Virus record (IMG/VR): IMGVR_UViG_3300007712_000002
Coordinates: 28,504-92,503 of that record
Length of the DNA stretch: 64,000 bases
Origin: a virus
Direction: 5' to 3' (one strand)
Under the pieces are notes generated by a model that ran no database searches, had not been told where the DNA came from, and saw only the letters and a list, made by a program, of their open reading frames with translations. The position numbers and the translations under genes were made by a program. Shown here one piece after another: positions 51,225 through 51,504 of the stretch. How positions within the stretch are numbered: the first letter of the stretch is position 1; each line of letters opens with the position of its first letter.

Positions 51225-51377
51225 ATGCAACTATTTGTTCAACATATCACCAAGCTGGCGAGCCTCGCCGCCTCCGTGATGTCCAATACATGGGCGTTGA
51301 ATTATGGTGGCCAGATTAGCTCAGTCCTCGGAGGCAAAGATCGCTTTGAACCTACCAAGGAGGGTGAACGAGACTAG
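51225..51377 (+). CDS. 50-aa candidate attenuator leader peptide (not in ORF track)
   Basis: MQLFVQHITKLASLAASVMSNTWALNYGGQISSVLGGKDRFEPTKEGERD*; purine-rich RBS. Confidence 0.7.
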   Translation: MQLFVQHITKLASLAASVMSNTWALNYGGQISSVLGGKDRFEPTKEGERD

Positions 51378-51405
51378 AAGTGTAGAATACGCACACTTAC
51401 TCGAC

Positions 51406-51437
51406 GCCCTCCAAGCAGAAGCTTAGGAGGGTTTTTT
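51406..51437 (+). terminator. Rho-independent terminator with overlapping antiterminator
   Basis: GCCCTCC-AAGC-AGAA-GCTT-A-GGAGGG-TTTTTT; 5' arm can instead pair with GGAGGGTG at 51359. Confidence 0.85.
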
Positions 51438-51504
51438 AATGGACTAACTAGGATAACATTTTTCAAAGACTTCAAAAAAAGATAGAAATTTTTGAAAAAA
51501 GTTG

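Follow-up and report, generated by a model that had tools for sequence, protein, structure and literature searches.

We analyzed a stretch of 64,000 nucleotides (hereafter the window) that forms the final 64 kb of an IMG/VR virus record of 92.5 kb. It contains a 50-codon gene whose end is built into two alternative RNA folds, one of them an intrinsic terminator. Our best explanation, which we put forward tentatively, is that the small gene has a promoter of its own and ends in a ribosome-dependent, attenuator-like terminator. Folding predictions and one independent diverged lineage are the basis of the proposed switch, and from these we infer that the position of the ribosome may choose the fold in vivo and that read-through may matter.

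A conserved small gene next to a tRNA array

The completeness of the record was estimated at ~25%, so that only part of a giant phage is represented; the window was contained in Logan contigs from 14 soil-metagenome runs. Approximately 36 tRNA genes extend from 48970 to the record end, and the tRNA set of the window is incomplete, since the record stops inside the tRNA array. A permuted tmRNA of the alphaproteobacterial type (41184–41522, plus strand; RF04321, 110 bits; RF01849, 66 bits) is preceded by a cassette-type promoter at 41188, and its type gives a hint that the host is an alphaproteobacterium. For a neighboring 406-residue ORF, the protein search had its best match in the Sinorhizobium phage Phosso. 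Directly 5′ of the region of the 50-codon gene, we observed a gene for a stand-alone Smr-domain protein of 78 residues (50635–50871, plus strand; PF01713, E 2.4e-12). Smr-domain nucleases, such as SmrB, cleave mRNA at collided ribosomes, and the Smr-domain protein, the tmRNA and the tRNAs make up a translation-rescue gene set carried by the phage. Relatives of the Smr protein with 53–59% identity were found on other viral contigs (L003–L013), which belong to unrelated phages and do not have the locus of the 50-codon gene. A blastn search of 50600–52200 against the phage collection gave zero matches, and tblastn of the 50-residue peptide against it gave one chance match (E 7); by these comparisons, the locus bears no resemblance to any cultured phage in the collection searched.

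The ORF list and direct reading of the sequence place the gene at 51225–51377 on the plus strand, from ATG to TAG (50 codons plus the stop). Its SD-like pairing energy of −2.9 kcal/mol lies within the range of the phage’s genes (median −3.6). Homologs of the product were found at 98, 78, and 76% identity in a large protein collection, and a profile search of 1.84 billion representatives yielded 12 clusters at 50% identity, all of 43–52 residues. These 47–53-residue proteins, as aligned, would make up a family of small proteins from soil giant phages that lacks annotation. A helical N-terminal half is predicted, and the motif LGGxDRFEPTxEGxRD lies in the C-terminal half. In the family alignment (A3), ten residues are invariant (W23, N26, Y27, L35, G37, D39, R40, P43, E46, and G47) and are concentrated in the last 28 positions of the peptide. 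Variable positions lie between them, indels are in-frame, conservation at the protein level extends down to 44% identity, and the stop falls three codons past the invariant EG in every member (15/15 sequences). The protein-level conservation and the in-frame indels make a noncoding small RNA without translation unlikely. The AlphaFold model of the product was poor (pLDDT 59), with only an N-terminal helix at residues 2–24. The product had no match in Pfam-A, no PHROGs family member below E 0.028 and no usable match in the ESM Atlas, while a search of Rfam 15 with the region 51160–51440 gave no match at the gathering threshold nor at E up to 5. One of the clusters, P0005, was found on 13 contigs, the longest of 346.8 kb, which indicates that the family belongs to giant phages. 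Judged by its sequence relatives, the ORF is a true gene that encodes a small, conserved protein in a soil giant phage. To our knowledge, classical leader peptides do not show such sequence conservation, and the translation-health sensor of the earlier note, taken as a mere sensor peptide, is not supported by a product that represents a conserved family with ten invariant residues.

The same note had counted 36 different codons and 19 amino acids in the 50 positions and had read them as a “broad-codon” design. A scripted count gave the same figures, with Cys as the absent amino acid. Among 9233 overlapping 50-codon windows from the phage’s long ORFs (mean 30.1, SD 2.7), 1.6% reach this number of codons, and the probability of reaching 36 codons in independent draws from the phage codon usage is 0.045. 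The diversity is thus above average (top 1.6–4.5%) but only moderately high, ~2 SD above the mean, for a feature that was chosen post hoc. Window-encoded tRNAs read 36/50 of the ORF’s codons vs. a mean of 35.7 in ordinary ORF windows of the phage; since this match is average, the ORF does not mirror the tRNA array, and the idea of a special codon design is not supported. The cluster of regulatory codons typical of the attenuator class is likewise absent, the 36 codons for 19 amino acids forming no run.

Competing folds at the end of the gene

The putative transcription unit would consist of a promoter, P1 (−35 at 51127), a 5′ untranslated region, the ORF, and an intrinsic terminator. P1 (51113–51155, plus strand) is composed of an A-rich box, AAAAAAGTTG, a −35 element TTGACA (51127–51132), a 17-nt spacer, and a −10 element TAGTGT (51150–51155); because the −10 is weak (3/6), P1 was absent from the consensus-scan list. 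We infer a transcript start near 51162, which leaves an untranslated region of ~60 nt in front of the ORF. The layout of P1 is the same as at ten other sites in the window, and the resulting promoter cassettes (an A-rich tract, TTGAC(A/C), a 17-nt spacer, and TAnnnT) are located on the plus strand at 3946, 41188, 48609, 49166, 50880, 51127, 51505, 56082, 56525, 61051, and 63715. A second promoter, P2 (51491–51533, plus strand), has an A-tract and a −35 of the P1 type. Its TTGACA-17-TATATT at 51505–51533 agrees with the consensus in 11/12 positions, with a −10 better than that of P1, and it heads a large structured RNA, followed by tRNA genes. P1 and P2 share a 16-base stretch, AAAAAAGTTGTTGACA, and the discriminator GGTTT, and the 14-mer AAAAGTTGTTGACA occurs exactly twice in the window, at 51119 and 51497. 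As a separate observation, the region 50880–51110 (plus strand) opens with a promoter-like TTGACC-17-TATATA at 50880, which is followed by ~200 nt without ORF or terminator up to P1; transcripts starting at 50880 would enter the 50-codon gene.

The two folds are formed by the following elements, all on the plus strand. Arm A, the 5′ arm of the antiterminator (51359–51372), has the sequence GGAGGGTG-AA-CGAG and spans the last base of codon 45, codons 46–49, and the first base of codon 50. Arm B, the 3′ arm (51400–51412), reads CTCG-A-CGCCCTCC. Between the arms, right behind the stop codon, lies an inner hairpin (51378–51398) of AAGTGT (51378–51383) and ACACTT (51393–51398) with a 9-nt loop. Together they make up a 54-nt three-helix hairpin, A:B, built from the last six codons, the stop codon, and the 35 nt that follow. 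The intrinsic terminator (51406–51437) pairs 51406–51416 with 51421–51432, has one bulged A, the loop AGAA and a T6 tract (51432–51437); within it CCCTCC-AAGC (51407–51416) pairs with GCTT-A-GGAGGG (51421–51431). The last seven bases of arm B (51406–51412, GCCCTCC) serve at the same time as the terminator’s 5′ arm, which makes the two folds mutually exclusive. Direct reading of the sequence bore out the earlier note on the pairing of arms A and B around the inner helix, on the double use of GCCCTCC, and on a sigma70-like promoter at 51505 just past the terminator.

Pairing of the terminator’s 5′ arm with the upstream sequence gains 11.8 kcal/mol. When the 55 nt in front were shuffled 3000 times with dinucleotides preserved, 0.1% of the shuffles reached this gain, and 2–5% did so when codons 41–50 were synonymously recoded according to the phage codon usage. 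The choice of the codons AAG, GAG, CGA, and GAC in arm A favors pairing (recoding test, p 0.02–0.05), and the rare codons GAG and CGA sit at positions where they pair. When one procedure was applied to the nine terminator-like hairpins in the window, upstream sequestration amounted to −13.1 kcal/mol here, to −6.1 kcal/mol for the next hairpin and to ~−2 kcal/mol in the median. The competing hairpin is therefore more than chance, both by the shuffles (p ~0.001) and as the outlier among the nine terminators.

Folding was performed with ViennaRNA. Separately folded, the antiterminator hairpin has −21.7 kcal/mol and the terminator −17.6 kcal/mol. The long hairpin proposed by the earlier note is the minimum-energy fold of 51340–51445 (−32 kcal/mol, z −2.96) and is thus the best fold locally, whereas the fold of the presumed whole transcript, 51160–51445, contains the terminator instead. 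The untranslated whole transcript favors the terminator because arm A can pair with 51319–51328 (plus strand). This possible segment 1 pairs with 51358–51365 in the equilibrium fold of the whole transcript and might free the terminator on untranslated RNA, although this prediction is weakly supported. In folds of the growing transcript (start 51162), arm A remained bound to segment 1 until arm B was made; A:B was the minimum-energy fold at transcript ends 51412–51425, with arm C of the terminator not yet made; and with arm C made, the terminator plus the upstream pairing surpassed A:B by ~3.5 kcal/mol (untranslated RNA at equilibrium).

The earlier note had proposed that a ribosome at the stop codon masks the antiterminator and leads to termination, and the in silico masks agree with this. 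Masking 51363–51389, as by a ribosome at the stop, gave a terminator probability of 0.998, and for footprints from codon 42 onward, the stop included, the terminator was the sole possible fold (probability 0.80–0.998). Its second proposal, that stalling earlier allows read-through, was not supported for a stall at any codon: with a single ribosome at codons 10–41 the equilibrium was on the side of the terminator, and the antiterminator was favored only when the ORF was masked up to codons 30–40 (probability 0.58–0.99; 0.99 for codon 40). With no ribosome, the terminator reached 0.996 in the equilibrium ensemble of the full transcript. Thermodynamic models of this kind, which take no account of kinetics, do not fix whether untranslated RNA would respond with termination or with read-through.

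In the mechanism that we tentatively propose, arm B is transcribed before arm C, so with arm A free, A:B would form first and the terminator would be pre-empted. A ribosome at approximately codon 42 or at the stop would cover arm A and allow the terminator to form. Translation that keeps pace with transcription would then result in efficient termination and a lagging lead ribosome in leaky termination, with read-through expected if the first ribosome falls behind within the final third of the ORF or if the ORF is covered by ribosomes. Such a balance would be similar to that of a four-segment attenuator, its outcome being set by kinetics. Read-through would reach P2, the large RNA, and the tRNA genes here, and in the relative another small ORF first. 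If the switch works, the end of a small gene would double as a sensor of the distance between ribosome and polymerase, and the principle of the trp attenuator would be realized without regulatory codons and with a conserved protein as the “leader.”

A diverged relative and the downstream region

Logan contigs of four soil runs were compared at 80% likeness, and the sequence of a relative was rebuilt from the tables; gaps in the contig cover carry no meaning. The relative, of the P0005 type, was present in three runs (X12, X13, and X14), covers 51293–51438 and differs by ~14%; it counts as one independent diverged lineage, its two variant contigs having nearly the same sequence. The frame of its ORF survives two indels, one of +3 and one of −3, and its stop codon is TAA in place of TAG. 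Its arm A is GGAGGGC-TAC-CGAG, in which 51365 T to C turns a G–U pair into G–C and the two rare codons are retained; its arm B is CTCG-AT-GCCCTCC, with CTCG and GCCCTCC unchanged. The only proposed partner of the conserved CTCG is CGAG in the ORF. The changes 51405 C to T and 51366 G to T remove an end pair without compensation, and 51325 T to A breaks one pair of segment 1. The inner stem AAGTG(T)/(G)CACTT is preserved, T–A having become T–G, around a loop rewritten with indels, and the terminator has kept both stems, with three bases added to the loop. The folds of the relative have −22.1 kcal/mol (antiterminator) and −17.1 kcal/mol (terminator), compared with −21.7 and −17.6 in the window.

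Changed positions in the noncoding part were found at 5/40 paired vs. 7/14 unpaired positions (Fisher p 0.007; antiterminator-specific, 0.026), and no compensatory double change was seen in the helices of the one diverged lineage compared. Conservation of arm A may be protein-driven, because the arm lies within the invariant E46–G47. Sequence comparison with this one lineage gives real but modest backing to the two folds. The sole return of the metagenome scan (L002) had three differences, all outside the stems (in the −10/start region, in the internal loop at codon 48, and in the hairpin loop), and being nearly identical, it is useless for covariation. Scans of IMG/VR were empty for the 406-residue neighbor, for alignments A1 and A3 of the peptide, and for a DNA pattern that covers the degenerate codings of DRFEPT(K/R)EG, as were scans of prokaryote genome contigs with this pattern and the alignment A4.

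Three other candidates for the region around the stop codon were rejected. An overlapping 40-codon ORF (51304–51426) has its frame broken by the relative’s net +1 indel in the hairpin loop. Hairpin-driven stop-codon read-through or recoding is at odds with the same indel, no downstream frame being kept. An internal start behind the SD-like AAGGAGG (51357) has no start codon 5–10 nt downstream. A further observation concerns the 5′ untranslated region, where GTTACACA (51199–51207) pairs with the GTGT… after the stop (51378–51386) in the whole-transcript fold; in the relative, the rewritten loop GTGTAAC perfectly complements GTTACAC of its 5′ region (loose end at 51184). A conserved 5′–3′ fold-back that competes with the inner hairpin is possible from these sequences.

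Downstream of the terminator, the window has an A/T-rich spacer of 60 nt up to P2 (50 nt up to the promoter box). The promoter box (51489–51511) is present in the relative, 174 nt past the terminator, and ~370 extra bases in all separate the relative’s terminator from its homolog of the large RNA. Its T-tract is directly followed by GTCTAAAGGAGAATGAAAATGGAACCAGAA, which contains a ribosome-binding site and in-frame ATGs. This insert, after the equivalent of 51438, opens with AAAGGAG and M-K-M-E-P-E…, a small ORF missing from the window’s phage. With a ribosome-binding site and ATG at the T-tract, a promoter would not fit in between, and in the relative something directly downstream depends on read-through. 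The extra modules indicate that the small gene and the tRNA array are not a fixed pair.

The tRNA region itself contains promoters at 51505, 56082, 56525, 61051, and 63715, and promoters of the same build throughout the RNA-gene region argue for a chain of short units, not a single-gate operon. Promoter-less regulated genes directly downstream, a feature of attenuators, were not found, given the 11/12 match of P2 and the further promoters in the array. The role of the element as a gate of the tRNA array, as formerly proposed, is not supported, given the stronger P2 60 nt on, at least four more promoters in the array and the extra modules in the relative. Because P2 lies directly downstream, the share of read-through in the downstream RNAs is small, unless P2 is regulated differently. 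We consider it improbable that the conserved product and the end of its mRNA together act as a translation-speed gauge, in which slow progress of the lead ribosome, or its arrest by the conserved nascent chain, would let A:B pre-empt the terminator; transcription would then continue into the large RNA and the tRNA genes and couple the supply of phage translation RNAs to host translation, with the phage’s tmRNA and Smr-domain genes alongside. With its weak codon argument, conserved peptide and array promoters, the locus is a cautionary one for leader-peptide gating of phage tRNA arrays. Within the large RNA behind P2, a weak match to YrlA (Y RNA-like; 51860–51955, plus strand; 23.9 bits, E 0.026, gathering score 69) coincides with a tRNA-shaped module. 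The relative in run X14 retains 51557–51872 and 52024–52065 of this RNA.

Alternative explanations and known attenuators

A plain small gene with an ordinary constitutive terminator, in which the hairpin over the stop codon is non-regulatory for termination, is a possible but doubtful reading. The hairpin could then be a 3′-end structure that stabilizes the mRNA or forms after release, or a by-product of three SD-like/anti-SD-like GGAGGG/CCCTCC words. The unit does have its own promoter, a strong terminator and a conserved protein as its product, in a region that is a mosaic of short promoter-bearing cassettes. The local fold of the released 3′ end is a Y-shape of −32 kcal/mol in which 51348–51356 pairs with the terminator’s 3′ arm and the U-tail is paired too. 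At equilibrium, the terminator is favored at nearly all single-ribosome positions as well as on ribosome-free RNA (0.996), and arm A overlaps invariant residues. However, an upstream sequestration that is unique among the window’s terminators and exceeds the shuffles speaks against it, as do the rare GAG and CGA at pairing positions, kept in the relative, and the conservation of the noncoding CTCG and inner stem while the loops were rewritten. Moreover, A:B surpasses the terminator in stability and is made first, and the relative has a ribosome-binding site and ATG immediately past the T-tract. A dedicated many-codon leader serving as a general translation-health sensor, in which any stall would open the antiterminator and drive the tRNA array, shares with our preferred reading a switch geometry that is real. 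It can also draw on the codon diversity (top 1.6–4.5%), on the position of the gene just 5′ of the RNA-gene region and near the tmRNA and the Smr-domain gene, and on the antiterminator favored when the ORF is masked to codons 30–40. We nevertheless regard it as quite unlikely: conservation concerns the peptide sequence, beyond its codon set; the tRNA match is average (36/50 vs. 35.7); single stalls at codons 10–41 do not favor the antiterminator at equilibrium; P2, with its better −10, follows at once, with four or more promoters inside the array; and the relative places an extra ORF start, a promoter box and ~370 bases before the large RNA.

The 54-nt interrupted hairpin might instead be an RNase III-type processing site that splits the small mRNA from the downstream RNA precursor in read-through transcripts, similar to the sites in T7 early mRNAs and lambda sib. 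Its three stacked helices, interrupted by internal loops, comprise ~18 pairs or roughly two helical turns and would suit this role, as would a region that yields many RNAs in need of processing; yet nothing in the hairpin points specifically to RNase III, and the hairpin competes with the terminator instead of extending it, which makes this explanation very unlikely. Finally, the conserved C-terminal half could be an arrest peptide, such as TnaC or SecM, that holds the ribosome near the stop on a signal and so sets the choice of fold. The 28 C-terminal positions, among which the invariant residues cluster, would roughly fill the exit tunnel; all 15 sequences have the same spacing between the invariant EG and the stop, and the stop codon is located inside the switch. 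Against this, no known arrest motif was found in the 50-residue product and an ordinary protein function accounts equally well for the conservation; we give this scenario only a slim chance.

The attenuator-like terminator that we prefer can be compared with several known systems. Ribosome-mediated attenuators of amino-acid operons include trpL, hisL, pheL, thrL, and pheM ahead of pheST. As in this class, a translated ORF precedes an intrinsic terminator, a segment at the ORF end pairs with the terminator’s 5′ arm, and a ribosome at the stop would mask that segment and bring about termination. The typical features that were found here are a translatable short ORF ~60 nt behind P1 and a terminator and antiterminator that share a strand, and segment 1 (51319–51328) may add a trp-like four-segment layout. 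Unlike the class, the phage locus has no run of regulatory codons, and the product of its 50-codon ORF is a member of a conserved family. The terminator is separated by a strong promoter from the genes that follow, which specify RNAs and not biosynthetic enzymes, and the element is phage-borne. In pyrE and pyrBI, attenuation operates through the coupling of transcription and translation, and the upstream ORF of pyrE is a protein gene, rph. There too, the closeness of the lead ribosome to the polymerase at the ORF end decides the outcome, but with the opposite sign: in pyrE and pyrBI, a close ribosome blocks the terminator and results in read-through, whereas at the phage locus termination is the predicted result of a ribosome in that position.

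Attenuators with a leader ORF that respond to general inhibition of translation have been described for vmlR (PMC9226507) and msrD (PMC10314930), and Sinorhizobium trpL responds to antibiotics, its leader peptide having a function of its own as well (PMC7298713; PMC7968998). In these systems, the position or stalling of the ribosome on a short ORF is reported to pick the terminator or the antiterminator, as proposed here, and the translation state is sensed rather than one amino acid. Their leaders have 3–15 codons, serve resistance genes or sRNA production and are bacterial, whereas the phage ORF is long, conserved, and situated in a phage RNA-gene region. Since regulatory codons and promoter-less regulated genes are both lacking, we do not file the locus as a member of the class; by analogy, it is best described as a variant of the leader-peptide attenuators, with a geometry like that of trpL and a logic like that of the general-inhibition sensors.
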